Shown here in pieces: positions 5,504 to 32,724 of a stretch of 64,000 nt of DNA. Position 1 is the first letter of the stretch. Each line of letters begins with the position of its first letter. Source of the stretch: Hyphomicrobiaceae bacterium (GTDB taxonomy: Bacteria > Pseudomonadota > Alphaproteobacteria > Rhizobiales > Hyphomicrobiaceae); the NCBI GenBank assembly GCA_041397645.1, contig JAWKWE010000008.1, forward strand, positions 28,394-92,393, read 5' to 3'. The notes under the pieces were generated by a model. It was not told where the DNA came from. It did not search any database and saw only the letters and a program-made list of their open reading frames with translations. Both the position numbers and the translations under genes were made by a program.

Positions 5504-5530
5504 GACGTACTCCGAGAGAAGGTGGCAGCA

Positions 5531-7276: not shown

Positions 7277-8442
7277 GGCCGGCGTTTGATGAGGCGGAGG
7301 AGCTGTCGCTGCTGCGTGGCACCCTGCGCCGTTTTGTAAATGACCGCATGTTGAGGCCTGAAGCAGCGCGATGGGATGCAGAATCGATCTTTCCCGTCGA
7401 GGTGTTTCGCGAACTTGCAGCGCTTGGAGTGTTCGGCCTAACGATTCCGGAGGAATATGGCGGGGCTGGACGAAACATTCCGGCCACGATGGTCGTAATC
7501 GAGGAATTGTCGCGACGCAGCATCGCGATGTCGATACCTTACGTACTCGCTGCCTGCTATGGCGGCATGAACATCCTCGAGTGCGGGAGTGAAGACCAGA
7601 AGCGCACATTGCTTCCAAAATGCGCTACCGGCGAATTGATGCTCGCGTTCGGTGTAACTGAACCGGATGTTGGTGGTGACGTAGCCAGCGTCAAGACCAC
7701 TGCCAGGCGCACTGGTGACGTGATCAAGGTCAATGGAACAAAGCGGTATATCACCGGGGCCAATATCGCAGACTACATCTATACCCTAGTCCGGTCCGAC
7801 GAGACCTTGCCAAGATACAAAAATCTTTCAATCCTGCTGATCCCGAGAACCGCGAAGGGAGTCGAGATCCGCAAGCTGGACATGCTCGGGCTACGAAGCG
7901 GCGCCTGGACCACCGAAATCATCTTAGACGACGTCGAGGTGTCGGCCCAGGACATCGTGGGTGGAGAGCCGGGCTGGAACAAGGGCTGGTCGTACATCGC
8001 TGGACCTGGCCTCGATGTCGAGAAGCTCGAAGTTGGCGCGATCGCTCTGGGAATCGCCGAGGCGGCTGTCGACGACGCCTGGGAATATGCTGAGACGCGC
8101 AAGCAATTCGGAAAGCCCATCAGCAACTATCAAAACATCCGGCATATGCTTGCCGATGCCAGAACGGACCTGCACGCGTGCCGATTGATGCTGTACAGCG
8201 CGGCAGGTCTGGCGCAGGCCGGACGCCCTTGCGGAATCGAGAGCTCCATGGCGAAGCTGTTCATCTGCGAGCGGGCAAAACAGGTCGTTCTTAACTGCCA
8301 ACTGATCTTCGGCGCATATGGATGCGACCTTGATTTGGATATGCAGCGGTACGTGCGGGACATCCTTATTCTTCCGATCGCTGGCGGGTCGTCGGCCATT
8401 CAACGAAATAACCTAGCAAACAGAATGCGCCTTCGTCTCTAG
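7273..8442 (+). CDS. Acyl-CoA dehydrogenase
   Basis: TIPEEYGG, VTEPDVGGD, NGTKRYIT, RKQFGKPI and GGSSAIQRN motifs. Confidence 0.92.
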   Translation: MRPAFDEAEELSLLRGTLRRFVNDRMLRPEAARWDAESIFPVEVFRELAALGVFGLTIPEEYGGAGRNIPATMVVIEELSRRSIAMSIPYVLAACYGGMNILECGSEDQKRTLLPKCATGELMLAFGVTEPDVGGDVASVKTTARRTGDVIKVNGTKRYITGANIADYIYTLVRSDETLPRYKNLSILLIPRTAKGVEIRKLDMLGLRSGAWTTEIILDDVEVSAQDIVGGEPGWNKGWSYIAGPGLDVEKLEVGAIALGIAEAAVDDAWEYAETRKQFGKPISNYQNIRHMLADARTDLHACRLMLYSAAGLAQAGRPCGIESSMAKLFICERAKQVVLNCQLIFGAYGCDLDLDMQRYVRDILILPIAGGSSAIQRNNLANRMRLRL

Positions 8443-8467
8443 CCAGACGAAGATTCGGAGAAGCAAA

Positions 8468-9349
8468 GTGAAGTATGGATCCGTATTCCGTCCGGGCCTT
8501 TTTGCTGACCATCACTTCGTGATAACCGGCGGCGGCAGCGGGATCGGCCGTTGTACCGCGCACGAACTCGCCTCCTTGGGAGCGCACGTCGCCTTGGTAG
8601 GTCGTGATCCTGATCGGTTGATAGCCGTGGCCGCAGAGATCGAATCGACCGGAGCCATAGCCCCGACCACTCATGTCTGCGATATCCGCGACGAGGAAGC
8701 GTCAAAAAGAACGATTGCGGCAATTCTGATCCAACACGGCCAGATCGATGGTCTCGTGAACAATGCGGGCGGGCAGTTTCCCTCACCATTGAGGGATATA
8801 ACTCGGAAGGGTTGGGACGCCGTCATTGCCAACAACCTGACCGGCGGCTTCTTGATGGCGCGGGAGTGCTTCACACAGTGGATGGAGGCAAACGGCGGCT
8901 CCATCGTCAATATGATCGCGGACATGTGGTGGTCGATGCCCGGAATGGGACATTCCGGAGCCGCGCGGGCGGGAATGCTGAATTTCACGATGACTGCTGC
9001 CGTGGAATGGGCCGCCGCTGGCGTGCGGGTCAACGCTGTCGCGCCTGGTGCAATCGCGTCGTCAGGGCTGGATACCTATTCGGAGCCAATGAAGGCTCGG
9101 CTGCAGGAGTACTGGCGGCATATCCCGGCAAAGCGACTTGGAACGGAGGCCGAGTGCTCCGCGGCGATTGTCTTTCTGCTTTCGCCGGCAGCTGCTTTCA
9201 TCAGCGGCAGCTGTTTGCGTATCGATGGCGCTCAGCCGAACGGCAAGAGTATCTGGCCCATGCCGGACCACAAGAAGTCAAGGCCGTTCCGCGGCTTTCC
9301 GTTAGAACGTGCTCCGGCATATCTGGAGCCGCGTGAGCCTAAGGAATAA
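8468..9349 (+). CDS. SDR oxidoreductase, AtuB-like / enoyl- or dienoyl-CoA reductase clade
   Basis: GTG start after GGAG; SVFRPGLF, TGGGSGIG, NNAGGQF and PGMGHSGAARAG (no YxxxK), closely resembling Pseudomonas AtuB. Confidence 0.88.
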   Translation: MKYGSVFRPGLFADHHFVITGGGSGIGRCTAHELASLGAHVALVGRDPDRLIAVAAEIESTGAIAPTTHVCDIRDEEASKRTIAAILIQHGQIDGLVNNAGGQFPSPLRDITRKGWDAVIANNLTGGFLMARECFTQWMEANGGSIVNMIADMWWSMPGMGHSGAARAGMLNFTMTAAVEWAAAGVRVNAVAPGAIASSGLDTYSEPMKARLQEYWRHIPAKRLGTEAECSAAIVFLLSPAAAFISGSCLRIDGAQPNGKSIWPMPDHKKSRPFRGFPLERAPAYLEPREPKE

Positions 9350-9415
9350 CCATGCCACAGGGTGGCGTCGCGGCGCGTGACCATTGAAGGGGGAATGCCT
9401 GCATAAGGAGTGACT

Positions 9416-11041
9416 ATGCTGGGTCTCATGCAAGACAAACCGCTTCTGATAAGCGATATCATCACATATGCCGAGACTTATCATCCGCTGCGGGAGGTCA
9501 TATGGCGGACAGCATCGGGATCGATCAGCCATTCGAATTATTCGACGGTCGCGGGGCGCGCAAAAAAGCTCGCCAATGCGTTGCGAGCGTATGGAATCAA
9601 GACTGGCGATCGCGTCGCCACGCTTGCCACCAATTCCACGTGCCACCTTGAACTCTACTATGGAGTATCTGGCATCGGCGCGATTTTGCACACTGTCAAT
9701 CCGCGCCTGTATGATGAGCAGCTTATATACATCATCAATCACGCCGAAGACCGGATGCTTTTCGTGGATCCGGAATTGATTCCCATTTTGCTTCGGTTGA
9801 GAGAACAACTCCCGAGGCTGGAGCGAATCTTCGTTCTTGGAGATGTTGACAGGTCTGCTGTCGAGAATTTGGAGCTGGAAAGCTACGACGACTTTATTGA
9901 GCCGCATCCTGCAGCGATTGCCTGGCCGAGCTTCGACGAGAGGACCGCATCGTCACTTTGCTATACGTCCGGCACGACTGGGAACCCGAAAGGCGTTCTA
10001 TACTCCCATCGTTCGACCGTGCTGCACGCCATGAATGCCGCCCACACCAACGCGTATGGGATTTCAGTCCATGACGTCGCGATGCCGTTGACGCCGATGT
10101 TTCACGTCAACGCCGGTGGCCTTCCCTATATTGCTCCGCTATGCGGTGCGGCTTTGGTTCTCGTTGGGCCAAAAATTGATGGTGAGATCATGCAGTCTCT
10201 TATTGAATCGGAAAGGGTGAGTTTCACCACGGGCGTACCGACAATGGTCACGATGCTGATGGAGTATCTAGATCGCAGCGGAAAGCGTATTGATAGTCTG
10301 AAGCGTGCTGTGATTGGCGGCTCCTCCGTGCCCGCGGCGATGCTCGACCGCATGCGAACCCAATACGGCTGCAAGATCATGCAGCTCTGGGGAATGACGG
10401 AGACGAGCCCCGTTGGCGCGCTTTGCACAGAAACGCCGGCTGTGTCGGTCCTGCCGGAAGCGGCGCGAAGAGAAATCATGTTAAAGGCCGGGCGCGTGTT
10501 GTTTGGAATGGAGGTAAAGCTGGTAGGCGATGAAAGCTTGACCGCTTCTTCAGAACGAAGCCGGCAGGGTGCATTGTGGGTGCGTGGTCCTTGGACGGCG
10601 AAGGCGTATTTCAAGCAGGAGGATCCGCCAATATTGGACAAGGATGGCTGGTTTCCCACGGGCGACGTAGCTGCGCTGGACGAGTACGGTTTCCTTCAGA
10701 TTCTGGATCGCACAAAAGACGTCATAAAATCTGGAGGAGAGTGGATTTCGTCGATCGATATCGAGAACATGGTGTGCGGGCATCCCGAAGTCCGTCAGGC
10801 CGCTGTCATCGGCGTGCACCATCCAAAATGGGAGGAGCGGCCCCTGCTGATCATTGTTCCCGTGCCAGGTTCTTCGCCGACAAAGGAGGGCTTGCTCGAC
10901 TATCTAAGGCCGAGAATCGCAAGTTGGTGGATGCCGGATGATGTCGTGTTCATTGACGAGATGCCGATGACCGCGACTGGGAAAATTCGGAAGACTTCAC
11001 TACGCGAGAAATTTGAGAGCCGCCTAATGCCAGAAACCTAG
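9416..11041 (+). CDS. Medium/long-chain fatty acyl-CoA ligase (AlkK/DmdB-like)
   Basis: AAGGAG RBS; MLGLMQDKPLLIS N-terminus, YTSGTTGNPKGVLYSHRSTVLH, WGMTETSP, WFPTGD and KSGGEWISS. Confidence 0.92.
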   Translation: MLGLMQDKPLLISDIITYAETYHPLREVIWRTASGSISHSNYSTVAGRAKKLANALRAYGIKTGDRVATLATNSTCHLELYYGVSGIGAILHTVNPRLYDEQLIYIINHAEDRMLFVDPELIPILLRLREQLPRLERIFVLGDVDRSAVENLELESYDDFIEPHPAAIAWPSFDERTASSLCYTSGTTGNPKGVLYSHRSTVLHAMNAAHTNAYGISVHDVAMPLTPMFHVNAGGLPYIAPLCGAALVLVGPKIDGEIMQSLIESERVSFTTGVPTMVTMLMEYLDRSGKRIDSLKRAVIGGSSVPAAMLDRMRTQYGCKIMQLWGMTETSPVGALCTETPAVSVLPEAARREIMLKAGRVLFGMEVKLVGDESLTASSERSRQGALWVRGPWTAKAYFKQEDPPILDKDGWFPTGDVAALDEYGFLQILDRTKDVIKSGGEWISSIDIENMVCGHPEVRQAAVIGVHHPKWEERPLLIIVPVPGSSPTKEGLLDYLRPRIASWWMPDDVVFIDEMPMTATGKIRKTSLREKFESRLMPET

Positions 11042-11511
11042 CTCCAGTAAATCTGAACCGCTGCACCGAAGCGTATGATCGTTCGATTGCCCTCCGCGGA
11101 GAAAATTGTTGCCACAGCGGCAGACCTCGAGCGCATGGCGATGCTTGCTTTTCCGAGGCCGCCTCACTTAGCTTTTGCCTGTCAGGCTTTGCTCGGTTTG
11201 TCGCCGGAAAAGCCGATGAGGCGCCCCATCTGCACGCGTAGGGAGGCATTGCCTTTCTGAAGAAAAGAGGCTGCCGGCTAGTCGTTCGGCGATCATCGCA
11301 ACCCTTTGCTGGTCTCGGCTCTCTCCGCCGCCGTACGGTCGACGCTACTCGTAGGCGTTGCCGCTCAGGCCGATACCCGAAACACCCTGAATGACCGGCA
11401 CGCCGCCGGCGCCGTTACCGGCCGCGAGGTTGTACGCCGAAGTGTGGTTGTGCTCACTGCCATTGCAGCACATTGCGGCGGAGTCACAGCCGAATCTGGA
11501 TTTTGACGAAA

Positions 11512-11668
11512 TTCGACGAGTTATGGGACTTTCTCAGGGCTTCATTGCCGACGGATATTGCGACAAGATGTTGCGCCCGCGCATCCGGAGAAATCGGACA
11601 TCATCTGCTGGCAGCGGATATTGAATGCAAAGGGATGGGCCGTTCCGCTTGGACGGTCGAGCGGGTAG
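11512..11668 (+). pseudogene. Relic N-terminus of a PimC-like acyl-CoA dehydrogenase
   Basis: Three frame-shifted pieces, FDELWDFLRASLPTDIATR / HPEKSDIICWQRILNAKGWAVP / AWTVER, reconstruct the typical FxxEVRxFL...WQRILNxxGWAVPAWPVEYG start; compare the intact paralog at 14456 (VAPAWPVEYGG). Confidence 0.6.
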
Positions 11669-12136
11669 TTCGAACAATCCGTCAAGCGCAATTCATTCGA
11701 ACTGATCACGGCTGGTGCAGCCGTCGGCCAAAGCAAATGCGAAGTGGTCATGGTCAACGTCGAACCGCTCGTGCCGATTTGGACCGTTCTATCTTAAGCT
11801 GCAGCTTGTTGTTCTTGGTTGCGAACGAGCATGCTGATCACTTGAAGACGCTGTTGGCGGCCTGGAGTTCTCGCACCTTATCAATCTCCCGACCGCTCAT
11901 GCATCGCGCATGCCGATCTAGCAGGACGGTAGCCCGGCTTCGCGCACATACCTTTGATCGAGAAACATGCCTCTGGGGGGCTGCATTTTCAATAAGGCCG
12001 GAACCCCCAGTGGGACGCTGCAAATAAATTCCACGGGAGGATTGCGGGGCTGGCCGAGGCCGTTCGAATTTCTATCCCATTAAGCAGAAATCAAGATCCC
12101 GTTGCGCTGTTGACAGGCTTGCGCATGATGGATAAA

Positions 12137-12152
12137 TCTAACGTATGTTAGA
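12137..12152. promoter_or_regulatory. Operator copy 1, TCTAAC-GTAT-GTTAGA
   Basis: Perfect 6-bp arms; overlaps the -10 of a candidate promoter TTGACA (12110-12115)-N17-TAAATC ahead of the 12170 operon. Confidence 0.8.
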
Positions 12153-12169
12153 AAAAGTTGGCTCGAGAG

Positions 12170-12907
12170 ATGGAAATGTCTAGCGCGGATCATCGGCCGC
12201 CGGCGGATCCGGCGTGCTTCACTTCCCCGTCAAACTTTATCGATAGCGACAGCGCAGAGGTGAGGGCTTTCGTAAAGTCTGCTTTGCGCAACCTGAGTTC
12301 CAGCGCTTCCGATACCGAAAAGGCAATCCGACTGTTCGAAGCGGTGCGCGATGGGATCCGGTATGATCCCTACACGTTTGAACTGAGCCCCGATGCTTAT
12401 CGCGCTAGTGTGGTGGCAGGGGCGGAGTCTGCTTTTTGTGTGCCCAAGGCGATCTTGCTGACCGCCTGCCTACGTGCTGTTGGCATTCCCGCTGCATTGG
12501 GCTTCGCCGACGTTCGTAACCATTTGAATACGCCAAAGCTAACCGAGCTGATGCAAACGGATCTCTTCATTTACCACGGATACGTGCAGCTGTGGCTCGA
12601 CGGGAGGCCCTACAAGGTTACGCCGGCCTTCAACATGGAGCTATGCAAGCGCTTCGGAGTAAAGCCTCTTCTCTTCGACGGGACGTCTGACGCTCTGTTT
12701 CACGAGTTCGACGAAAAGAATCAGAGGCACATGGAATATGTTCATGACCGGGGCTTGTATGTGGACGCGCCAATTGACGAATTCCTGGCGGCGTTTAAGG
12801 CAACCTATCCGAAGCTGGAGGAATTCAACCGTTGCCGGATCGCGGGGCGGAACGCGAAAAACTTTGACGATGGTTTCACTCCGACGGAGGAAGGACATCG
12901 GACGTGA
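12170..12907 (+). CDS. Transglutaminase-like (Cys/His) family protein
   Basis: VRDGIRYDPY, FCVPKAILL (Cys), GIPAALGFADVRNH and YHGYVQLWLDG (His). Start could also be 12176. Confidence 0.82.
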   Translation: MEMSSADHRPPADPACFTSPSNFIDSDSAEVRAFVKSALRNLSSSASDTEKAIRLFEAVRDGIRYDPYTFELSPDAYRASVVAGAESAFCVPKAILLTACLRAVGIPAALGFADVRNHLNTPKLTELMQTDLFIYHGYVQLWLDGRPYKVTPAFNMELCKRFGVKPLLFDGTSDALFHEFDEKNQRHMEYVHDRGLYVDAPIDEFLAAFKATYPKLEEFNRCRIAGRNAKNFDDGFTPTEEGHRT

Positions 12908-13353
12908 AGTACCTGGAGGATTTCAAGGTCGAACAAATCTTTGCGTTCCGCACGCCGCCCTTAAGCAAGGACGAGATAATTTCGTTTGCCAGGGAATGGG
13001 ATCCGCAGCGGCTGCACACGGATGAAGACTATGCCAGGCAAATCCATGGCGGTCTGATCGCATCGGGGTTCCAGACACTCCTGCTCGTATTCAGGCCGAT
13101 TATGCGGGACTTCATGACGGGGGTCGCAAACATCGGTGGTTTGGGCTTCGAGAGGCTATCTTGGAACGCGCCTGTGCGGCCAGATGAACCGCTTGATATC
13201 ACGTTGAAGATGCTGGCAATTCGGCCCTCCCGAACCAAGCCCGATCGCGGTGTCATCAGCTACCGTGTCGAAGCGCGCAACATGGCAGGAGAGCCCGTGC
13301 TGACCGTCGATACCGGTGCAATGGTCAAACGAAAGACAGTACTGGTGTCATGA
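12904..13353 (+). CDS. MaoC-family (hotdog) dehydratase
   Basis: YLEDFKV, FAREWDPQRLHTDED, GGLIASG and PVRPDE motifs. Confidence 0.88.
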   Translation: MKYLEDFKVEQIFAFRTPPLSKDEIISFAREWDPQRLHTDEDYARQIHGGLIASGFQTLLLVFRPIMRDFMTGVANIGGLGFERLSWNAPVRPDEPLDITLKMLAIRPSRTKPDRGVISYRVEARNMAGEPVLTVDTGAMVKRKTVLVS

Positions 13354-14459
13354 GTAATGTGAGGGCGCATTCACAGGACGATCTGCGAATGCTGCGCGGA
13401 AGCGTGCGCACACTTTTGGAGCGCGCGGGCGGCATCGCGCGCGCCCGTAACGCTCGCAACAAGGGCTGGGACCGACAGGTGATGAACGAATTGGCCCATG
13501 CTGGCGTGCTCGGTGTCGCCGCTCCAGAAGCGGTCGGCGGGCTTGGCATGGGCCTTAGCGCGGCCGGTGTCATCGCGGAAGAAGTCGGTCGCGCCCTCGC
13601 GCCCGAACCGGTGGTGTCAGCCATCGCCCTTGCGATCGGAATGATTCAACGGGTATGTCCTGGCGATGCGATGCTCGCTGCAGCGATTGGCGGTGAAATC
13701 ACCTGGGCCCTCGCTTGGCAGGAACGTGGTCTTCGAGGTTACCCTGACCAAATGGCGTGCCGATTCGACGGCAAGCTGCTGAACGGCTCGAAGGCCTGGA
13801 TTGCCGGGGCGGTCGGCGCGGATCAATTGCTCGTGGTGGCGCAAAATGATTCGCAGCCCGTTCTCGTTGCCCTCGACGCTGATGGCAAGGGAATCTACTC
13901 GGAGCTGCGACGACAGTCCGACGGAAGCCATTGCTGTGACATCGGCTTTGTCGACGCCCCAGGTAAAGTGCTGGCCGAAGGCTCGGTGGTCTCGGAAGCA
14001 TTGTCCAGCGTCGTCGCCGACGCCACGGCGCTCGCCGCCGCCGAGTTGGTCGGCGTCAGCGCAAAAGCACTCGAACTGACCCTCGATTATGTGAAGACGC
14101 GCGAGCAGTTCGGCAAACCGATTGGGTCGTTCCAGGTGATCCAGCATCGCGCCGTAGACTTGTATGTCGCTCAGCAGGTGGCCGAGGCGGGGGTGACTGA
14201 GGCGCTGGCACGGATGGATGTGAGCGCCGATCAGGGCGCGCGCATGCGTGAGGCGAGCCGCGCCAAAGCCCGCGCCTGCAGCACGGCCAAGAAGATTACC
14301 CGGGAGTCGATCCAACTTCACGGTGCAGTCGGCTATACCGACGAGTTCGACATCGGCCTGTTTCTGAACCGTGCGCTTGTGCTTTCGGCTTGGCTCGGGG
14401 ACGCCGCCCACCACCGGGCTCGTTGGATGGACGCGCTCGATGTAAATGAGGCAGGATGA
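13350..14459 (+). CDS. Acyl-CoA dehydrogenase, PimD-like alpha partner of a heteromeric pair
   Basis: REQFGKPIGSFQVIQHR and IQLHGAVGYTDE; lacks the normal xEPxxGSD FAD segment and the GGxxEI C-terminal loop. Confidence 0.85.
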   Translation: MSNVRAHSQDDLRMLRGSVRTLLERAGGIARARNARNKGWDRQVMNELAHAGVLGVAAPEAVGGLGMGLSAAGVIAEEVGRALAPEPVVSAIALAIGMIQRVCPGDAMLAAAIGGEITWALAWQERGLRGYPDQMACRFDGKLLNGSKAWIAGAVGADQLLVVAQNDSQPVLVALDADGKGIYSELRRQSDGSHCCDIGFVDAPGKVLAEGSVVSEALSSVVADATALAAAELVGVSAKALELTLDYVKTREQFGKPIGSFQVIQHRAVDLYVAQQVAEAGVTEALARMDVSADQGARMREASRAKARACSTAKKITRESIQLHGAVGYTDEFDIGLFLNRALVLSAWLGDAAHHRARWMDALDVNEAG

Positions 14460-15610
14460 TGATTGACTGGAATACACTGAGCGATGAAGCGTTCTGCCGC
14501 CACGTTCGCACCTTCTTCCAGACCGAATATCCCGAGGGGCTGCGCCATCTGTCACATCGGGCGAAGTTCGCCGAGATCCGCAAGTGGCACGAGAAGCTCT
14601 ACGCCAACGGAATGGTCGCACCGGCTTGGCCGGTCGAATATGGCGGAATGGGCCTGGAAGCTTCGAAGCTCCTAATCTTTTACGAAGAGCAACAGCGCTG
14701 GGGCGTGACGCGGGGCCGCGACATGGGAGTGCAGATGGTCGGGCCCCTTATCATCAAGTTTGGAACCCAGGCGCAGAAAGATCACTGGCTGCCGCGTATC
14801 CTTACCTGCGAGCACATTTGGTGTCAGGGCTACTCCGAACCGGGCTCAGGCTCCGACCTCGCCAGTCTGCGCACAAACGCCGTGATTAATGGCGACCATT
14901 TCGTGATCAACGGGCAGAAGATCTGGACCACCATGGCTCATGACGCCACCCACATCTTCATGCTGGTGCGCACCGATCCTAATGCCGCGAAAAAACAGGA
15001 AGGCATCAGCTTCGTGCTCGCCGATATGAACCAGCCGGGCATCGAAGTCCGCGTGATCACAACGCTCGCGGGTGAAGACGAGTTCTGCGAAGTATTCTTC
15101 GACAATGCCCGCGCGCCCCGCGAAAACCTGGTTGGCGAACTGAACAAGGGATGGACGATGGCCAAGACGTTGCTTGGCTTTGAGAGAATCTTTATTGGAG
15201 CGCCTAACTTGGCGCAAAACGCGCTTGTTCAGCTTCGGACGATTGCGCAAGGACGCTGCATGTTCAACGACCCGGTGTTCCGCGATCGCTTTGCCAAAGT
15301 CGCTCTGGATGTTGAGGATCACGCGGCACTTTATACCCGCTTCGCCGACCAACTCAAGCGTGGCGAGACGTTAGGTCCCGACGTGTCAATGCTGAAAATC
15401 TGGGTCACTGAGACTTTCCAAGAAATTACCGAGCTCATGATCGAAGCCGCGGGACCCGACGGCGGCATGACCGGTCCGTTGCAGATCGGCAATGTCGGTG
15501 TCGACGTATTGGCAAACTTCTATAAGGCGCGACCCGCAACGATCTATGGCGGAACGAATGAGATCCAGCGCAACATCTTGTCGAAAGCCGTTCTTGGCTT
15601 GCCTGGCTGA
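14456..15610 (+). CDS. Acyl-CoA dehydrogenase, PimC-like catalytic partner
   Basis: PAWPVEYGG, WCQGYSEPGSGSDLASL, GQKIWTT, LGFER and IYGGTNEIQRN. Confidence 0.92.
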   Translation: MMIDWNTLSDEAFCRHVRTFFQTEYPEGLRHLSHRAKFAEIRKWHEKLYANGMVAPAWPVEYGGMGLEASKLLIFYEEQQRWGVTRGRDMGVQMVGPLIIKFGTQAQKDHWLPRILTCEHIWCQGYSEPGSGSDLASLRTNAVINGDHFVINGQKIWTTMAHDATHIFMLVRTDPNAAKKQEGISFVLADMNQPGIEVRVITTLAGEDEFCEVFFDNARAPRENLVGELNKGWTMAKTLLGFERIFIGAPNLAQNALVQLRTIAQGRCMFNDPVFRDRFAKVALDVEDHAALYTRFADQLKRGETLGPDVSMLKIWVTETFQEITELMIEAAGPDGGMTGPLQIGNVGVDVLANFYKARPATIYGGTNEIQRNILSKAVLGLPG

Positions 15611-15645
15611 AGAGGCAGTTCCATATTTACGGAGGAAAGCACACC

Positions 15646-16455
15646 ATGTCTGACCGCTATGCCAAATACAACAAACTGAAATTCGACTTTCCGGCGGATC
15701 GCGTTCTCCGGATCACGTTCGATCGCCCCGAAACCTTCAACTCTGTGGACGCGGAAACGCACACGCAGATGACCGACATGTGGATCGATATCGACCGTGA
15801 CCCCAACATCAACGCGGTTCTCGTAACAGGAGCCGGCAAAGCGTTTTCGGCGGGTGGCGATTTCAGCCTGATCGAGCGAATAGCTGGCAATTTCGATGAA
15901 ATGATGCGGACCTGGAAGGAAGCCAAGGATCTCGTCTACAACATCATCAATTGCAATAAGCCAATCATCTCTGCGATCAATGGACCGGCCGCGGGTGCTG
16001 GGCTAGTTGTCGGAATTCTCGCCGACGTCTCGATCGCTGGTAAGCGAGCTAAAATTGTTGACGGGCACCCGCGTCTCGGGGTTGCCGCAGGTGATGTGGC
16101 TGCGATCATATGGCCGCTCCTCTGCGGTATGGCCAAGGCGAAGTATTATCTTCTGACGTGCAAGGCAATTTCCGGTGAAGAGGCTGAGCGCATTGGCTTG
16201 GTGTCCATGTGTGTCGACGATGATCAACTGCAGCAAGTTGCTCTTGATACCGCAGTTGAATTGGCAAACGGTGCGCAAAGCGCGATCCGCTGGACGAAAT
16301 ATTCGCTGAACAATTGGCTGCGCCAGGCTGGCCCGACTTTCGACGCTTCTACCGCATTCGAGATGCTGGGTTTCATGGGCCCTGACGTCAAGGAAGGGGT
16401 GCTATCGCATCGGGAAAAGCGTGCTCCCAATTTTCGCAAGGACTGTCCCATTTAG
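15646..16455 (+). CDS. Crotonase-fold protein with a His...Asp motif (6-oxocamphor-hydrolase-like segment)
   Basis: FSAGGDF and [12 protein letters not shown]; [12 protein letters not shown]...WP replaces the two catalytic Glu of classical hydratases. Confidence 0.85.
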
Positions 16456-16479
16456 GTCGTGCGGAAAGGGGATCGTTAC

Positions 16480-17676
16480 ATGCCCGACGCGATTTACCGC
16501 GAGATTGCCGTAGCCTACGGTCAGGCGGCACGCAATGCGCCCGGCCTAAAGGCGCGCTTCGATGCGGCTGGTTTCGATCCTGCAAGCATCAGATCATTGA
16601 ATGATCTGTCTCGCCTGCCGGTTCTGAAAAAGGAACAGCTCCTAGCGCTCCAAAGGGACAATCCGCCCTTTGGAGGGTTTCTCGCAGCAGATCCAAAAAG
16701 CCTGTCGCGGATCTATGTGTCGCCTGGACCGATCTTCGAGCCGTCTTTGGCGGGAGGTGGCGGACACGGCCTCAAGGAGCTTTTCAAGGCTGCGGGGATC
16801 ACGGGAGGCGATCTTATCCTGAACACATGGTCTTATCATCTGGTTCCGGCAGGTCTTTTGTTTGACGAAGCTGCGCGTGCTGTCGGCGCGACTGTCATTC
16901 CCAGCGGTACTGGAAACCGCGAACTGCAAGCGCAGATCATTGTGGAAACCGGCGTGACCGCGATCTGCGCCAGCACGGCCTTTTTCCTTGCTCTGGCGGA
17001 TAAAGTCATCGAGGCGTATGGGCGCAGCGCCTGGAAGGTGAAGTCGGCCTTCCTCGGCGGCGAGATGGGCGATTGGATGGCCAAGCGGCGTCGTATCGAG
17101 GCAGATTACGGCGTCAAGACTTGGGCCGCCTATGCTACAGCCGACCTCGGTCTTGTGGCTTACGAGGATGACGGCGAAGGGTATTCTGTGCATCCCAACC
17201 ACGTGGTACAGATCTGCGATCCCATCAGTGGAGAGCCGTTGGCCGCCGGCGAGACCGGAGAAGTTGTGGTGACCGCGCGCGACGCCAACTGGCCGATGAT
17301 CCGCTTGGGCACCGGCGATAGCGGCTTCGCTCTTGAGAGCGATGGAGATGGTCGCGTAACGCGTCTTTCGGCCTTGCAGGGGCGTGTCGGCGCAGCTGTC
17401 AAAGTTCGCGAGATTTTCGTCTACCCCCGCGCTGTTGAAGAAGTGGTTATTGCGACCCCCGGCGTGCGTGCCGCTCAAGCGGTGGTGACACGCGAGAACG
17501 GCCGCGACACCGTGCGTCTCTTACTCGTCGCGGAGCCCGGCGCTGATCATGCGCTGGCCCAAACGCGTGCCATGGAAGGATTCGCGACCAGTTCCCGAAT
17601 TCGGGCTGATGGCGTGGATTTTGTCGATCTCCTGGAGGAAAACGCGCCGCTGATTGTAAACAAAAAAGACGTCTAG
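16480..17676 (+). CDS. Phenylacetate-CoA-ligase (PaaK)-family protein with a degenerate P-loop
   Basis: PaaK-like LSRLPVLKK, YHLVPAG, GTGN, GGE and RLGTGD; SPGPIFEP stands where SSGTTG is expected. Confidence 0.75.
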   Translation: MPDAIYREIAVAYGQAARNAPGLKARFDAAGFDPASIRSLNDLSRLPVLKKEQLLALQRDNPPFGGFLAADPKSLSRIYVSPGPIFEPSLAGGGGHGLKELFKAAGITGGDLILNTWSYHLVPAGLLFDEAARAVGATVIPSGTGNRELQAQIIVETGVTAICASTAFFLALADKVIEAYGRSAWKVKSAFLGGEMGDWMAKRRRIEADYGVKTWAAYATADLGLVAYEDDGEGYSVHPNHVVQICDPISGEPLAAGETGEVVVTARDANWPMIRLGTGDSGFALESDGDGRVTRLSALQGRVGAAVKVREIFVYPRAVEEVVIATPGVRAAQAVVTRENGRDTVRLLLVAEPGADHALAQTRAMEGFATSSRIRADGVDFVDLLEENAPLIVNKKDV

Positions 17677-19040
17677 GCGGAGGGGCCAGCGTGCGACACA
17701 TGCCGTCTCGCTCGTCTGCCCATGGAGCGCGGATTGCGACGAACGTATTGAAGACCATCCAACAGCAGACTCTGCAACATCACAATCAGTTCGGGCAGGG
17801 AATAATATCCATCGCGTTGATCCTTTTCGGGATTGAACCATTCAACAGTCCAATTCAGCGCTCCTAACATGGCCTGCCGCAAGGGCACAACCTTGATATC
17901 GGACCGCAGCTCACCGGATTCCTGTGCTTTGCGTAAGCAATCATCCCAAAGGTTCGCGTATTTGTGTCGAATTGGCTGATGACGTGCTCGCACCTGCTCC
18001 GGTAGTTGTCCGTAAATGCGGATATTCGCGGACGTAAATTCGCTCAAGCGAAAGAGGTATTCCATATGGGTACGGATCGCGGCAGCTATTCTGCTGCGAT
18101 GATCAGGAAAATGGCTTTCCTGCGAAAGAGTCGCCGAGACGCCGCGCAACAACGCTCGCAATCCAATGTCCAGCACCTCGTCGAGTATCTCATTCTTTGA
18201 CCTAAAATGATAATAGATGCTGCCTGCTTCCATGCCGGCTTCTTGTGCGATATCTCGCATGGTTGCCGCTTTGTATCCCCTGTCGCGAAAGATTCGCGCC
18301 GCGGCCGAGAGCACTTGGGCGCGCGTTCGGGATGCTTTGCCGTCCTCGGCAGTAATTACTTCTAGGGTTTCCAATTCCGTAGGATCTGGTCGTGTCAGTG
18401 GGATGCCGCGTGCCTTGGACATGCCCTCCAGAAGTAGTTTAGACATGCGCTCAGACAGCATGCTGACCGGGTAGCGAGTTGCGTCATACCATTCCACGGT
18501 CCAATTCATTGCTCCCAGCACGAACTGTCGCAGCGGCACGACTTTGATGTCGATCCGAATGTCTCCAGCCTTTTGCGCTTGTTCCAGAAACTCGTCCCAT
18601 ATGGATGTATAGGTCTGGCGCAGCTTCCGATGTGGCGACCTCCTAGATCGAGGAAGCCTTGAGTAGTTCCTAATATTGGCCGAGGTGAAGCTGCCTTCCC
18701 GCAGAACATGAGTTAGGTGCGTAGTGATCATTGACGCAAACGTCTGGCGGAAATCTATGCCGGACGACCTGCAGCGGTCCCGCACCTCTTGGACAGCGTT
18801 AAGAACATCCTGAACGCCCAGCTGGAGAATCTCGTCAAGGATCGCGTCCTTCGACGCAAAGTGGTAATATAAGCTGCCCGCTTCCATGTTTGCCGCAGCT
18901 GCAATTTTGCGAAGCGTCGTGGCGCTATAACCTTCATCACGGAAAAGTTTGGCGGTGGCGCTCAGGATGAGAGCCCGCGTCTGGTCGGACTTGACGGCAG
19001 CTGTATCCACCGCGTTGGGCTTTGTAGAACGCCTATCCAT
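17673..19040 (-). CDS. Tandem double-TetR repressor (two full HTH plus ligand domains in one chain)
   Basis: Two repeats: TRALILSATAKLFRDEGYSATTLRKIA..EAGSLYYHF..LGAMNWTVEWY and TRAQVLSAAARIFRDRGYKAATMRDIA..EAGSIYYHF..LGALNWTVEWF. Converges on the previous gene with a shared CTAG. Confidence 0.9.
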   Translation of the reverse strand: MDRRSTKPNAVDTAAVKSDQTRALILSATAKLFRDEGYSATTLRKIAAAANMEAGSLYYHFASKDAILDEILQLGVQDVLNAVQEVRDRCRSSGIDFRQTFASMITTHLTHVLREGSFTSANIRNYSRLPRSRRSPHRKLRQTYTSIWDEFLEQAQKAGDIRIDIKVVPLRQFVLGAMNWTVEWYDATRYPVSMLSERMSKLLLEGMSKARGIPLTRPDPTELETLEVITAEDGKASRTRAQVLSAAARIFRDRGYKAATMRDIAQEAGMEAGSIYYHFRSKNEILDEVLDIGLRALLRGVSATLSQESHFPDHRSRIAAAIRTHMEYLFRLSEFTSANIRIYGQLPEQVRARHQPIRHKYANLWDDCLRKAQESGELRSDIKVVPLRQAMLGALNWTVEWFNPEKDQRDGYYSLPELIVMLQSLLLDGLQYVRRNPRSMGRRARRHVSHAGPSA

Positions 19041-19084
19041 ATCGTTTAATTTGCGTCTGGACATTGAAAGCACAAGTGCGATAA

Positions 19085-19100
19085 TCGAACATTCGTTAGA
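19085..19100. promoter_or_regulatory. Operator copy 2, TCGAAC-ATTC-GTTAGA
   Basis: Lies between the divergent double-TetR and badH-like genes, immediately after TGGACA-N16-GATAAT. Confidence 0.78.
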
Positions 19101-19151
19101 ATTTATCGCGGAATCGACTGGAGCGTATCCGCGGAAGGGAGGGTGATAACC

Positions 19152-19913
19152 ATGCGTGGGCTAAAAGGGAAGCGGACAATCGTAACCGGTGGTGGCAGTG
19201 GGATCGGGCGCGAGGTATGCAAGCGATTTGCTGAAGAAGGCAGCGAGGTCGCCGTTTTCGACGTTAATGCGGCCGGAGCGGCCGAAACGGTGAAGATCAT
19301 AAAGGAGGCAGGCGGTAAGGCCACTGCTCACGCAGTTGATATAACCGATCGTGCGGCAGTCGATGCGGCTGTGGCTGAGGTGGAGAAGGGCGGCCCCATC
19401 AACGTTCTGGTCAACAATGCGGGCTGGGACGTTCCTCGCGCTTTTCTGGAAAGCGACGCGGCCCTTTGGAAGAAGGTTATTGACATCAATCTTTACGGTC
19501 CGCTGAATCTGCATCACGCGGTACTTCCTGGCATGGTTAAAAACGGTGGTGGTCGCGTAGTTAATATCAGTTCCGACGCGGGCCGCGTAGGCTCCTCAGG
19601 CGAAGCTGTCTATTCGGCGTGCAAGGGCGGCATCATTGCTTTTACCAAGACAGTGGCACGGGAGTTGGCGCGCAAGGGAATACAGCTCAACGCGGTGGCT
19701 CCGGGGCCGACCGACACCCCGTTGTTCGCGGAATTCTCAAAGGGCGAAGGAGGCGAGAAAATCGCAGAAGGTCTCAAGCGTTCCATTCCAATGCGAAGGC
19801 TTGCACAACCGACCGACTATCCCGGAATCATCTGCTTTCTTGCTTCCGATGACGCTGGTTTTATCACGGGCCAGGTGATTTCGGTTTCTGGCGGCCTGAC
19901 GATGCATGGATAA
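19152..19913 (+). CDS. badH: 2-hydroxycyclohexanecarboxyl-CoA dehydrogenase-like SDR
   Basis: NNAGWD, HHAVLPGMV, SSDAGRVGSSGEAVYSACKGG, PGPTDT and ITGQVISVSGGLTM match the BadH signature; exact substrate not established. Confidence 0.8.
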   Translation: MRGLKGKRTIVTGGGSGIGREVCKRFAEEGSEVAVFDVNAAGAAETVKIIKEAGGKATAHAVDITDRAAVDAAVAEVEKGGPINVLVNNAGWDVPRAFLESDAALWKKVIDINLYGPLNLHHAVLPGMVKNGGGRVVNISSDAGRVGSSGEAVYSACKGGIIAFTKTVARELARKGIQLNAVAPGPTDTPLFAEFSKGEGGEKIAEGLKRSIPMRRLAQPTDYPGIICFLASDDAGFITGQVISVSGGLTMHG

Positions 19914-19963
19914 CGCGCAAGGCGCTGCCCAACCAACTAACGGATTTATGTAGCCGGACTGCG

Positions 19964-19968
19964 CCGAC
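19964..19968 (+). repeat. IS21 target-site duplication, left copy (CCGAC)
   Basis: Identical 5-mer directly flanking both IS ends. Confidence 0.85.
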
Positions 19969-20027
19969 TGTCAAACGCCATCCGGAACTGCCCCCTTTGC
20001 GTCATGAAGAACTGCCCCCACCCTTGG
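19969..20027 (+). repeat. IS21 terminal inverted repeat (istB side)
   Basis: TGTCAAACGCCATCCGGAACTGCCCCCT...GTCATGAAGAACTGCCCCCACCCTTGG, with two internal AACTGCCCCC subrepeats. Confidence 0.9.
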
Positions 20028-20029
20028 GT

Positions 20030-20887
20030 TCATGATGTCGGTTGAAGGTCGGCTCCGCCGCTGACGGGACGGAGGGAGGCGGAGCCGACCGGAGGGCCGT
20101 CAGCGGCGGGCGGCTTGATGAGGCCGCTCTTTCGCTTGGCGCGGAGCCGGTAGCTGTCGCCGCGGATGGTCAGCACGTGGCTGTGGTGCAGGAGCCGGTC
20201 GAGGATCGCGGTGGCGACCACCGGATCGGCGAACACGGCGCCCCATTCGGCAACGCTGCGGTTCGATGTGATCAGCATGGCGCCGGTTTCGTAGCGGCGG
20301 CTGACCAGCTGGAAGAACAGATGCGCCGCGTCGGGCTCCAGCGGCAGGTAGCCGAGTTCGTCGACGATAAGCAGCTTTGGTTTCGCCAGCGCGAGCAGTT
20401 TCTCGTCCAGGCGCCGCTCGCCATGCGCCTTGGCGAGGCCAGCGACCAGCGTCGTCGCCGTGGTGAACTGCACCGTGTAACCGGTCAGGATCGCCTCTCG
20501 CCCGAGCGCGATCGATAAATGCGTCTTACCGACGCCCGGCGGGCCGAGCAGCAGCACGTTCTCGCCGTTGGCGATCCAACGTGACGCGGCCAGGTCGCGG
20601 ATCTGCTTCGGATCGATCGACGGCTGCGCCTCGAAGTCGAAGCCGGCAAGCTCCTTCACGGCCGGGAAGTGTGCGAGTTTCAGCGCCATCTCGATGCGGC
20701 GATGATCCTTGCGCACGATCTCGCGCTCGCACAGCAGGATCAGCGTCTCACGTGCCGACAGGTTCGCGCGCGCCGCCTCGTCGAGCAGGTTGTCGAGCTG
20801 GTCGCGGATGCCGGAGAGCTGCAATCGCACCAGCATGGCGTCGAGCCGATCGATTGGTGCTTCGGTAGCCTTCTTTGCGCGCGCCAT
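20030..20887 (-). CDS. istB: IS21 helper AAA+ ATPase IstB
   Basis: FDFEAQP, Walker A GPPGVGKT, LLIVDELGY, ITSN and AILDRLLHH; true ATG at 20887 overlaps the istA TGA. Confidence 0.95.
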   Translation of the reverse strand: MARAKKATEAPIDRLDAMLVRLQLSGIRDQLDNLLDEAARANLSARETLILLCEREIVRKDHRRIEMALKLAHFPAVKELAGFDFEAQPSIDPKQIRDLAASRWIANGENVLLLGPPGVGKTHLSIALGREAILTGYTVQFTTATTLVAGLAKAHGERRLDEKLLALAKPKLLIVDELGYLPLEPDAAHLFFQLVSRRYETGAMLITSNRSVAEWGAVFADPVVATAILDRLLHHSHVLTIRGDSYRLRAKRKSGLIKPPAADGPPVGSASLRPVSGGADLQPTS

Positions 20888-22140
20888 CAGAAGCTCCCTC
20901 CGATCACTGCTTCGTATTCGGCAAGAGGACGCAACAACGAGGGCAGCGGAGATGACCCCGGCACTGTCGGTGTCGCGATCGCCGGTCGGCAGACCGCGCC
21001 ATTGCGACCGGCAACCCCGTCGAGGTGGGCGGAATCGACGATCCGCAGCCGGCGACCCTCCGATTGCTTGTGGACCGCAACCTCGCGCATGCCGTGGCGG
21101 ACGCGCACCTCGCCGGCCGCAACCGTCACTGCCACGCGCTCCCCGATCAGCCGCCAAGGCACCGAGTAGCTGTTTGTATCGATCTCGACCGCGCAATCGT
21201 TGCCAACGACACGGGTCAGTTCGCGCAACGATCCGAACGACGGCTGCCCGCCGAGCGGCTTCAACCGGTGTGCCTCGTCACGCGCAAAGCGAGCGATCGG
21301 CGCCTCGCCGGTCGTGCCGTGGATACGCAGGTTCGCCACCTCACGCTCCCACTCGGCGAGATGCGCCTCGAATGCCTCCCAGCTCGCGAAGGAATGCCCC
21401 GCGATCGCATTCTTCTTCACGTAGCCGACGCCATTCTCCGTCTTGCCCTTCGTGCGCGCCCGATACGGCGCACAGGCGCGAGGACGGAAGCCCCAATGCT
21501 TTGCGAACGCGATGAGCTTGTCGTTAAACTGGACCGACCGGCTCACCGCGTCGTGGCGCACCACCAGCGCGCGTGGATTGTCCATCAGCACCTCCTCCGG
21601 CACGCCGCCGAAGGTCGTAAACGCGCTCTCGAGCCCCGCAAACCAGTGCTCCTGCTTCTCAGCTCGGAACGCACGCACATGCAGCCGTCGCGAATGCCCG
21701 AGCGTCGCCACGAACACGAATGTTTTGACCTTCACCACGCCGATCTCGACCAGGCGCTCGCCGAAGTCGATCTGCAGCTGTCGGCCCGGTGGCGTCTCGA
21801 ACCGCGTCGTTGCCAGCGCTTCGGCCTTCAGCGCCTGGCGATATGGCTGCACGGCGCGTTGCAGCGTCCGCCGGCTGACTGCCACGCCTTTCTCGGCCAA
21901 CAGGTCCTGGCGCACCACATCTGCATTGCCGCGGTGCCGGATGAACCGCTCGCGCAACCAACCTTCAAGGCCATCGAGCCGCTTCGGGCGCTCAGGTGAC
22001 TTGAACGGCTTCACCCCGCCCGCCGCCACGTAGTCCTTCACCGTGTGATGGCTGCAGCCCAGCTGCCGCGCAATCCGCTTCAGACCCCACCCGCACGCCC
22101 TCAGGCGCAACATCTCCGCCACGTCATCCGGCGTCTTCAT
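20887..22140 (-). CDS. istA: IS21 DDE transposase IstA
   Basis: N-terminal HTH, RFETPPGRQLQIDFG, GGVPEEVLMDN and RARTKGKTENGVGYVK. Confidence 0.95.
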   Translation of the reverse strand: MKTPDDVAEMLRLRACGWGLKRIARQLGCSHHTVKDYVAAGGVKPFKSPERPKRLDGLEGWLRERFIRHRGNADVVRQDLLAEKGVAVSRRTLQRAVQPYRQALKAEALATTRFETPPGRQLQIDFGERLVEIGVVKVKTFVFVATLGHSRRLHVRAFRAEKQEHWFAGLESAFTTFGGVPEEVLMDNPRALVVRHDAVSRSVQFNDKLIAFAKHWGFRPRACAPYRARTKGKTENGVGYVKKNAIAGHSFASWEAFEAHLAEWEREVANLRIHGTTGEAPIARFARDEAHRLKPLGGQPSFGSLRELTRVVGNDCAVEIDTNSYSVPWRLIGERVAVTVAAGEVRVRHGMREVAVHKQSEGRRLRIVDSAHLDGVAGRNGAVCRPAIATPTVPGSSPLPSLLRPLAEYEAVIGGSF

Positions 22141-22216
22141 CACCTGCCCCCGTGGATCAATCCACGACGAGCCTTCCGTGATTCGTTCCTCTTTCATTCA
22201 CTCTCTCCTCGGCTAT

Positions 22217-22274
22217 CCAAGGAGGGGGCAATTCCTCATGACGCCGAGGGGGCAGTTTTCCATGGCGCGCGACA
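22217..22274 (-). repeat. IS21 terminal inverted repeat (istA side)
   Basis: Reverse complement reads TGTCGCGCGCCATGGAAAACTGCCCCCT...GTCATGAGGAATTGCCCCCTCCTTGG and aligns with the other end. Confidence 0.9.
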
Positions 22275-22279
22275 CCGAC
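22275..22279 (+). repeat. IS21 target-site duplication, right copy (CCGAC)
   Basis: Matches 19964-19968. Confidence 0.85.
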
Positions 22280-22302
22280 ACGCCATATCGGATGAAATTT
22301 GT

Positions 22303-24240
22303 ATGTTTACGCCGGCAAAGGATATCCAGGATGACAGCAGCCTAAGAGCGTTTCTGACGCGCTGGGGTCTGAAAGATTACGAAAGTCTAGTCGAGCGGGC
22401 GGACGCCGACCCCGACTGGTTCTGGTCAAGAGTTATCGGTCTTGCGGATATACGCTTTTCGCGCCCGTACCAAAAGTTGCGCGATGTGAGTGGTGGACCC
22501 GAGGATATTCGTTGGGCCGTAGACGGCACTCTCAACCTCACTGAGACCTGCCTTGACGGGCGCATCGAGGCCGGCCTTGGGCAAAAAGCCGCCATCGACT
22601 GGATCGGCGAAGACGGGGAACGGCGCGTCTGGACTTATCGCGATCTCGCCCGCGAAAGCGCCCGGGTTGCCAGCGCCCTGGCCGCTCGCGGCGTCGGCGC
22701 GGGTGATGCGGTTGGCATCTACATGCCGATGGTGCCCGAGATCGAAGCGGCCCTCCTGGGCGTTGCGAGGCTCGGCGCTATCGCCGTTCCCCTGTTCTCC
22801 GGATACCCGGCGCCGGCCGTGGCGGCACGCTTGAACGACTGCGCGGCCAAAGCGGTTTTGACGGCCGATGCGAGCAGGCGTCGCGGCAGGCCTGTTCCCA
22901 TGGAATCCGTGCTGGTTGAGGCTCTGGCCGACGTGTCCAGCGTGCACACGGTGATCAGCCTGCGCCGCTTCAGCGGCAGCGCCGCCGACCCACGGCGGGA
23001 TCTAGACTGGGCTGCCACAGTCGGGGCCGCAAAGGCGGATTTTGCACCTGTTCCGGTTGCATCGGACGCGCCGATGATGATTGCCTACACGTCTGGGACA
23101 ACCGGCCGGCCAAAGGGGGTGGTGCACACGCATTTGGGTGTGCAGGCGGCAGCAACGACCAATTTCTTGTTGTGCCTCGACTTGAAGCTCGAGGACCGGC
23201 ACCTGTGGATGACCGATATGGGCTGGGTTATGGGCCCGCTAACCTTGGTCTCGACGCTTCTGGCGGGTGCGACAGTGGTTCTGGCCGAAGGTGCGCCCTC
23301 CACGCCGGACGACCCGTTCCGCCTGCTGCGACTGGCAAGCGAACACGGCGTTACACATCTTGGCGTCGCGCCCACATTGGTGCGACAGTTCATGAGAAGC
23401 GATCCCGGACTGCTGGCGCGGTACAATCTCTCTGCGCTCCGCATCGTCGCTTCCACCGGCGAGCCTTGGACCGACGACGCCTGGCTTTGGCATCTCGAAC
23501 ACATCTGTCGCCGCAGGGCGGTGCCACTCAACATCTCCGGCGGTACTGAGCTCTTTGGCGCAATTCTGACGTCGACGGTGCTGCACACGCTGCAGCCCTG
23601 CGGTTTTTCGACCGAGGCATTGGGCGTTGGGGCGAAAGTGCTACGACCGGACGGGTCCGAGGCAAGGAATGGCGAGGTGGGCGAGCTGGTGGTCACCAAG
23701 CCGCCGCTAGGCCTGACGCCCACGATTTGGCAGGATCACTCGCGATATCTCGAGACCTACTGGTCGGATTATCCCGGCATTTGGCGGCATGGCGACTGGG
23801 CGCGTCGGGATTCCGACGGAACATGGTTTATTCTCGGCCGTTCGGACGACACGCTCAATATCGCCGGCAAACGTATCGGCCCGACTGAGATCGAGGCCGC
23901 ACTCACTGCCACTGGTAAGGTGATCGACGCTGCGGCAATCGCAGCGCCGGATGATCTGAAAGGCTTCGCCGTAGTGTGCGTCTGCGTGCCCTCCGCTGCC
24001 GTGAAAAGAGACGACATCTTGGTGGAGCAACTGAAGGACAATGTAGCCGCCGCGGTCTCTCAACCCTTTCGCCCGCGCGAAATCCATTTTGTCGAAGCAC
24101 TGCCGAAGACTCGGAGCATGAAAACCATGCGCCGCGTCGTCCGCGCAGCGTTTCTGGGCGAGAACCCGGGCGACCTGTCACCCCTACAGAATCCTGAAGC
24201 CATTGCTCCGATCGCTGCATTGAGAAACAAAGGCCGCTGA
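22303..24240 (+). CDS. Acetate-CoA-ligase-like acyl-CoA synthetase (Acs/AcsA superfamily)
   Basis: DPDWFW, YTSGTTGRPKG, WMTDMGWVMGP, STGEPW, WRHGDW, GRSDDTLNIAGKR and LPKTRSMK. Start is the first ATG outside the IS. Confidence 0.88.
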   Translation: MFTPAKDIQDDSSLRAFLTRWGLKDYESLVERADADPDWFWSRVIGLADIRFSRPYQKLRDVSGGPEDIRWAVDGTLNLTETCLDGRIEAGLGQKAAIDWIGEDGERRVWTYRDLARESARVASALAARGVGAGDAVGIYMPMVPEIEAALLGVARLGAIAVPLFSGYPAPAVAARLNDCAAKAVLTADASRRRGRPVPMESVLVEALADVSSVHTVISLRRFSGSAADPRRDLDWAATVGAAKADFAPVPVASDAPMMIAYTSGTTGRPKGVVHTHLGVQAAATTNFLLCLDLKLEDRHLWMTDMGWVMGPLTLVSTLLAGATVVLAEGAPSTPDDPFRLLRLASEHGVTHLGVAPTLVRQFMRSDPGLLARYNLSALRIVASTGEPWTDDAWLWHLEHICRRRAVPLNISGGTELFGAILTSTVLHTLQPCGFSTEALGVGAKVLRPDGSEARNGEVGELVVTKPPLGLTPTIWQDHSRYLETYWSDYPGIWRHGDWARRDSDGTWFILGRSDDTLNIAGKRIGPTEIEAALTATGKVIDAAAIAAPDDLKGFAVVCVCVPSAAVKRDDILVEQLKDNVAAAVSQPFRPREIHFVEALPKTRSMKTMRRVVRAAFLGENPGDLSPLQNPEAIAPIAALRNKGR

Positions 24241-24426
24241 CAACCGTCTCAAGGGAAACGAAAGCCGTGCAATTCGTCGCCCGGCCCCGCCGAGGGTTCT
24301 GCCCGCCTTGTCATAGTCCATCCTTTGAGGCGCGGTGTCCCAAGAAGGACCTCTTCGACAGCCGGTCTCAATGCGCTGCCAGCGGGCCGGTCCATGGCCT
24401 ATGTCAACAGCTAATATCATCCACAC

Positions 24427-26506: not shown

Positions 26507-26552
26507 TTTCGTGCAAAGTCGATTTTAAAGGGCTTTGCGGGAGGACCATTCA

Positions 26553-28510: not shown

Positions 28511-28526
28511 CGCCACGGGGTTCAAC

Positions 28527-29687: not shown

Positions 29688-29716
29688 CAGTTGCGGATCG
29701 ATAAGGAGGCTAAGCA

Positions 29717-32712: not shown

Positions 32713-32724
32713 GTGCGCCAGACC

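Follow-up and report, generated by a model that had tools for sequence, protein, structure and literature searches.

The window, by which we mean the whole stretch of 64,000 nucleotides that was analysed, contains a forward-strand operon of six tightly packed genes, in which a crotonase gene (15646–16455) is the fifth and the first four overlap by 4 bp. The operon starts with a transglutaminase-core protein (12158–12907; Pfam Transglut_core) whose synteny extends to loci of Sediminimonas, Sulfitobacter and others. This gene leads the operon in all close relatives. The second gene encodes a MaoC-type (R-specific) hydratase (12904–13353), which is assigned through its resemblance to MaoC genes annotated by Pfam at the syntenic loci and overlaps its neighbors by 4 bp on both sides. 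Two acyl-CoA dehydrogenases (ACADs) follow, a PimD/IpdE2-like small subunit (13350–14459; TIGR03203, 147 bits) and a PimC-like large subunit (14456–15610; TIGR03204, 302 bits), each scoring under the respective cut-off. The crotonase gene encodes 269 residues and is preceded by a GGAGG Shine–Dalgarno sequence approximately 9 nt 5' of the ATG. The last gene starts 3 nt past the crotonase stop codon and encodes a distant PaaK-family adenylating enzyme/CoA ligase (16459–17676; TIGR02155, 112 bits, under the cut-off), annotated on RefSeq plasmids as belonging to the phenylacetate-CoA ligase family. A reverse-strand gene for a double TetR regulator (17673–19073), comprising two TetR_N and two TetR_C_24 domains, converges on the operon. 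Upstream of the operon, a 184-aa ORF at 11473–12027 shows no family match. Scans for promoters, terminators and palindromes around the operon yielded nothing beyond the shuffled background.

The double TetR gene is divergent from a forward-strand gene for a BadH-like short-chain dehydrogenase (SDR; 19143–19913). This SDR scores 353 bits against TIGR03206, below the cut-off of 431 and far higher than any other SDR of the genome, and only one SDR in the genome (4.2 Mb) lies above 45% identity to it. An AliB-like, that is, cyclohexanecarboxyl-CoA dehydrogenase-like, ACAD is encoded further downstream on the forward strand (26535–27734; TIGR03207, 528 bits, cut-off 575). The remainder of the window forms an acyl-CoA island that includes a FadH/OYE reductase, a Baeyer–Villiger monooxygenase, an HMG-CoA-lyase-like gene and several ligases. 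Three sets of biotin-dependent acyl-CoA carboxylase genes occur within the 64 kb (740–4308, 31105–34740 and 39599–44018), one of them in the order liuB-liuC-liuD-liuA. The run at 26535–35696 comprises the AliB-like ACAD, a crotonase, an ACAD, a second PaaK-like ligase, a carboxyltransferase, a biotin carboxylase-BCCP and an HMG-CoA-lyase-like gene, and resembles an operon for alicyclic or terpenoid acids.

Family assignment and fold of the crotonase

The gene product was assigned by ORF calling, Pfam and NCBIfam profiles, a PDB search and an AF2 model. The Pfam profile ECH_1 (PF00378) covers residues 20–264 at profile positions 6–249 of 251 (2.6e-48). The NCBIfam model of the EchA15 family (NF005595/PRK07327) gives 428.4 bits against a cut-off of 292, which identifies the protein as a member, and the remaining crotonase models all score it far under their own cut-offs. 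No other EchA15-family gene is present in the 4.24-Mb genome, which encodes eight further crotonase paralogues. The PDB search retrieved 3q1t (M. avium), 7m3w (M. paratuberculosis) and 3qk8 (M. marinum) with E values of about 1e-97, and 1wz8 (T. thermophilus) with an E value of 3e-69. These four are structural-genomics entries labelled as enoyl-CoA hydratase or EchA15. Structural-genomics crotonases were reportedly assayed by Mills et al. in 2022. Full-text searches with EchA15 and the PDB codes as terms retrieved no biochemical study of any EchA15-family member, and led to the 2013 prediction described below alone.

The AF2 model was made from an alignment of 37 family sequences; its mean pLDDT is 94.8, and it superimposes on the EchA15 structures with a TM score of 0.94 and an rmsd of about 1 Å, the identity to the mycobacterial ones being 55–57%. 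It displays the crotonase spiral fold followed by a C-terminal helical domain and matches more than 100 crotonase chains at Z > 8. We class the product as an EchA15 (PRK07327) crotonase of the trimer/hexamer type.

Active-site residues and likeness to diketone hydrolases

The PDB numbering of 3q1t equals that of the query plus 5, and the alignment of the two is ungapped in the active-site region. In a structure-based table, V126 and H146 of 3q1t stand opposite E144 and E164 of rat ECH (PMC3584854). Since the corresponding query residues are Val121 (codon 16006–16008, forward strand as for all codons given here) and His141 (16066–16068), both hydratase glutamates are absent, in agreement with the first-pass annotation. 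The protein thus lacks the glutamate pair of a classical enoyl-CoA hydratase (EC 4.2.1.17). His141 belongs to a DGH...GD segment (residues 139–150), with IIWP at residues 154–157, and its partner Asp150 (16093–16095) lies nine residues away, a spacing that had also been claimed from the letters. Two further active-site residues are His39 (15760–15762) and Glu239 (16360–16362). Among 37 EchA15-family representatives spanning 34–88% identity, His39 is kept in 36, His141 and Asp150 in 35 each and Glu239 in 34, and none carries Glu at the position of Val121. Conservation of at least 90% applies to each of H39, D139, H141, D150, W156, P157 and E239, all of which are present in the query, and goes beyond what chance would give. 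The residue following Asp150 is Val in the query and its alphaproteobacterial clade and His in most family members.

The FSAGGD motif singled out in the first-pass annotation is also in place. It occupies residues 67–72 (15844–15861) as the first oxyanion-hole/CoA loop, its family consensus is AFSAGGD, and the loop is kept family-wide together with a conserved Lys/Arg preceding it. By positional equivalence, Gly71 of this motif matches G76 of 3q1t and A98 of the rat enzyme, while Ala118 (GPAAGAG) matches A123 of 3q1t and G141 of the rat enzyme. As judged from the alignment, the backbone positions of the oxyanion hole are retained.

These replacements argue against classical enoyl-CoA hydration by the crotonase. 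An atypical enoyl-CoA hydratase or isomerase was weighed against this background, in which His141, backed by Asp150, would serve as the general base and Glu239 as the second acid, acting on a bulky cyclic or branched enoyl-CoA supplied by the adjacent ACAD. The retained oxyanion-hole loop would suit such an enzyme, and two other crotonases of the genome combine a His at the 141 position with the first Glu, which indicates that a His at this position is not limited to hydrolases. The lack of both glutamates in all 37 family members and the poor scores of the local site of 3q1t in comparison with known hydratases (PMC3584854) speak against it, and we regard this alternative as unlikely, albeit a serious contender.

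The complete His39/His141/Asp150/Glu239 set occurs in none of the eight other crotonase paralogues of the genome. One of the two Glu/His paralogues is the crotonase at 27548–28510, encoded after the AliB-like gene. It keeps the first Glu, has a His (GDQH) at the second-Glu position and carries another His at the position equivalent to His39; it represents a further non-canonical active site. The other lies outside the window (C8:108288–109043) and shows the same Glu/His pair with a Val at the His39-equivalent position.

In 2013, 3q1t was argued to be a beta-diketone hydrolase and not a hydratase (PMC3584854). Its top predicted functional residues, D155, H146, E244, D144 and H44, overlay D153, H144, E243, D141 and H43 of the Anabaena beta-diketone hydrolase (ABDH), of which four are known catalytic residues (PMC3584854). 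The query keeps all five equivalents (D150, H141, E239, D139 and H39), and by way of 3q1t and the published overlay it contains the residue set of the 6-oxocamphor hydrolase (OCH)/ABDH type, comprising a His/Asp dyad, a further His and a Glu. A fold search with the AF2 model against 48,161 PDB representatives identified OCH (1o8u) as the closest characterised fold, with Z = 31.2, an rmsd of 1.9 Å, 243/249 residues and 24% identity. It ranks fourth, after the uncharacterised 1wz8, 3rrv and 4lk5, and later matches have Z ≤ 29.9. The OCH-like dyad proposed in the first-pass annotation is therefore supported both by conserved counterparts of the four ABDH catalytic residues and by the structural comparison. 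The active site speaks for activation of water at a carbonyl in the manner of OCH and ABDH.

The query resembles OCH (Rhodococcus, 1o8u) and ABDH (Anabaena, 2j5g/2j5s) in possessing a crotonase fold without the hydratase glutamates and a His-x8-Asp pair with an additional His and Glu at structurally equivalent positions. It differs from them in its low identity (approximately 24%) and in having D-G-H where the ABDH numbering gives D-x-x-H. Furthermore, OCH and ABDH act on free diketones without CoA, whereas the neighbors of the query gene encode CoA enzymes. With the EchA15 structures, the query shares the DGH...GD...WP segment, the equivalents of His39 and Glu239 and the loss of both glutamates; the difference is that its gene resides inside a plasmid-borne acyl-CoA operon.

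In a sequence search, ABDH (E 1e-22) falls behind many hydratases and PaaG (E 1e-25 to 1e-30). Since ABDH is no closer by sequence than these proteins, the catalytic set need not have come from a shared ancestor, and with relatedness at the superfamily background the shared residues could be convergent or serve other chemistry. A search of the PDB with a 38-residue query around the motif gave no OCH or ABDH match at E values up to 10. The His...Asp segment of OCH was given in the first-pass annotation as a peptide that includes GDGAHVVWP and presumably has the spacing D-x2-H-x8-D-G. This spacing agrees with the ABDH residue numbers D141, H144, D153 and G154 (PMC3584854). Back-translated GDGAHVVWP had a single exact match among 401 Actinomycetota genomes, located in a non-crotonase repeat protein and attributable to chance.

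The fold and residue comparisons bear on two further alternatives. Following the 2013 prediction for 3q1t, the crotonase could be a CoA-independent beta-diketone hydrolase like OCH and ABDH, such that a neighboring dehydrogenase would oxidise a hydroxy-ketone to a free beta-diketone, which would then be hydrolysed. The four catalytic residues shared with ABDH and the standing of OCH as the best characterised fold match agree with this possibility, but the sequence relatedness to ABDH does not rise above the superfamily background, and the AFSAGGD loop with its preceding Lys/Arg is kept throughout the family. Together with the gene contexts described below, these points make a CoA-free substrate distinctly unlikely. 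The second alternative is a crotonase-type acyl-CoA thioesterase, comparable to 3-hydroxyisobutyryl-CoA hydrolase and DmdD, in which Asp150 or a water molecule activated by His141 would attack the thioester and free the acid at the end of a pathway. Thioester hydrolases with the crotonase fold exist, and DmdD is among the fold matches. 3-Hydroxyisobutyryl-CoA hydrolase uses a Glu/Asp pair, and the acid/base pair of the query, 8–9 residues apart on one segment, is reminiscent of it. The residue set is nevertheless that of ABDH and not the Glu/Asp of known thioesterases, and, with a ligase encoded right after the crotonase, such an activity would set up a futile cycle. We consider a thioesterase quite improbable.

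Distribution and gene neighborhoods of the family

The EchA15 family comprises 489 clusters (50% identity) scoring below 1e-30 and is present in Alpha-, Beta- and Gammaproteobacteria, Actinomycetota, Chloroflexota and Deinococcota. Within the host genus, the EchA15 cut-off is passed by one of 25 genomes, namely the source genome alone, and by 3 of 41 genomes overall. A block consisting of two ACADs, the crotonase and the ligase, with about 75% DNA identity, is found on large plasmids of Sulfitobacter, Sagittula, Paracoccus and Roseibium. The operon is also conserved on plasmids of the Roseobacter group and of Roseibium. Given this plasmid location and the rarity of the family in the host genus, it is an accessory, mobile catabolic module.

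A contig labelled as an uncultured Iamiaceae MAG (L016) is collinear with the window, its positions 4359–16807 corresponding to 11999–25682 at 85–90% DNA identity. Of the proteins encoded in this block, the crotonase is the best conserved (98–99% identity, compared with 91% for the PaaK-like protein and 76% for TetR). Since the segment resembles an alphaproteobacterial plasmid, its actinobacterial label points to mis-binning or to a recent transfer. Between the BadH-like SDR and an acetyl-CoA-synthetase-like gene, the window contains an insertion of about 2.3 kb (19919–22282) where L016 has about 55 bp; it carries a Mu-like/rve transposase ORF (20887–22197, reverse strand) and has a local GC of 0.65.

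Neighborhoods were compared at 80 related loci from species-representative genomes, using a profile made from a 10-sequence alignment. In the clade with at least 84% identity, the gene order is SCPx-type thiolase, MaoC, CoA-transferase, transglutaminase-core, MaoC, ACAD, ACAD, crotonase and PaaK-like, while the gene order of relatives at 58–69% identity is not conserved. Acyl-CoA genes lie within 5 kb in 49 of the 80 loci, and the other 31 have no recognised acyl-CoA neighbor. Unbiased clustering of ORFs within 3.5 kb across the 80 loci revealed no single conserved partner gene; the neighbor clusters found were SDR, AMP-ligase, ACAD and other crotonases, each in fewer than one-quarter of the loci.

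Orthologues of the BadH-like SDR (46–96% identity) occur within 5 kb of the crotonase at 15 of the 80 loci, in at least eight arrangements, and the two genes are directly adjacent in Reyranella-like, Sphingobium and Acidimicrobiia contigs. At a Sneathiella locus, the double TetR (52%), the BadH-like SDR (76%) and the crotonase (86%) occur together with a thiolase and with a PaaK-like ligase that differs from the one in the window. Measured against a single SDR above 45% identity in the 4.2 Mb of the source genome, the recurrence of the BadH-like SDR goes far beyond chance, even if related genomes do not count as independent. The nearby BadH-like enzyme invoked in the first-pass annotation is thereby corroborated, both by the SDR in the same island and by its orthologues beside the crotonase in unrelated arrangements.

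These neighborhoods bear on the atypical hydratase or isomerase as well. In its favor, the crotonase gene lies directly downstream of ACAD genes here, and in a 53%-identical family member it overlaps an ACAD gene. SDR neighbors also fit a hydratase, for which a dehydrogenase neighbor is equally expected. Against this, the MaoC hydratase in the same operon indicates that a hydration step is already supplied, and other canonical-looking crotonases are encoded in the island. As for a CoA-independent diketone hydrolase, one Reyranella locus contains a TrpE/PabB-type chorismate-binding gene, the crotonase, an SDR and a TauD-type dioxygenase among housekeeping genes, and at another locus an aldo-keto reductase stands beside the crotonase. 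Such enzymes usually use free small molecules, in line with a CoA-free substrate. In the window and at most of the informative loci, however, acyl-CoA enzymes and CoA ligases or transferases adjoin the crotonase gene.

Proposed ring-opening function

The profile of BadI, the 2-ketocyclohexanecarboxyl-CoA hydrolase (TIGR03210), gives a best score of 121 bits in the genome and 89.4 bits for the crotonase at 15646–16455, compared with a cut-off of 467.6. The genome thus has no BadI, as the first-pass annotation had assumed. BadI is a MenB-like crotonase, and the catalytic set of BadI and MenB is Asp/Ser/Tyr. The query is alike in the reaction type proposed for it, in which the ring of a cyclic beta-ketoacyl-CoA is opened by retro-Claisen cleavage following BadH, and in the kinds of partners present, namely a BadH-like SDR, an AliB-like ACAD and a PimCD-like ACAD. 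It differs in falling outside TIGR03210 and in its His/Asp set.

The exchange of the hydratase glutamates for the His/Asp set of diketone hydrolases makes the crotonase a reasonable candidate for the ring-opening step of an alicyclic acid pathway in which the usual enzyme is missing. A CoA thioester as substrate is suggested by the neighboring acyl-CoA enzymes and CoA ligases and by a partner dehydrogenase that makes a beta-keto group. Given the AliB-like, BadH-like and PimCD-like genes, the absence of BadI and the active site, a retro-Claisen model is the most economical. We therefore favor, tentatively and just short of calling it probable, a retro-Claisen hydrolase of cyclic or branched beta-ketoacyl-CoA esters. 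The CoA independence of OCH and ABDH and the location of some relatives among housekeeping or non-CoA genes count against this assignment. The earlier suggestion that the crotonase replaces BadI in opening a cyclic beta-ketoacyl-CoA is upheld as far as pathway logic and the residue set are concerned, while its chemistry, CoA binding and substrate are what we infer from the active site and gene context.

In the proposed mechanism, the thioester carbonyl of the beta-ketoacyl-CoA would be bound in the backbone oxyanion hole formed by the NH groups of Gly71 and Ala118. The His141–Asp150 dyad, situated at the site of the second hydratase glutamate, would activate a water molecule for attack on the beta-keto group. 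The bond between C-alpha and C-beta would then break, with the oxyanion hole stabilising the thioester enolate, and Glu239 and/or His39 may deliver the proton. In this island, the BadH-like dehydrogenase, acting after the AliB-like dehydrogenase and a hydratase, would produce the substrate, a cyclic or branched 3-oxoacyl-CoA. The opened dicarboxyl-CoA would pass to the PimCD-like dehydrogenase, whose genes lie just upstream.

The resemblance to OCH and ABDH has already been published for 3q1t, which is 55–57% identical to the query. New here are OCH as the closest characterised fold, the six-gene acyl-CoA operon, the BadH-like neighbor and the BadI-less genome, so that the contribution is an argument from gene context for a role that depends on CoA and is coupled to BadH. 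By extension, the EchA15 family, including EchA15 of M. tuberculosis and the four orphan crystal structures, might constitute the CoA-dependent counterpart of OCH, a His/Asp retro-Claisen hydrolase with a BadH-like partner that, in bacteria such as the present one, would replace BadI non-orthologously for alicyclic (cyclohexane-carboxylate-like or cyclic terpenoid) acyl-CoA rings; we offer this broader proposal as a possibility, with clear reservations. EchA15 proteins, among them a mycobacterial one for which structural genomics has delivered three structures, are annotated everywhere as enoyl-CoA hydratases, a label that the active site contradicts. If the role in C–C bond hydrolysis is true, thousands of annotations would be corrected, and the missing ring-opening step in BadI-less aerobic pathways for alicyclic or terpenoid acids would be supplied. 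It would also show how a single set of catalytic residues handles substrates with and without CoA.
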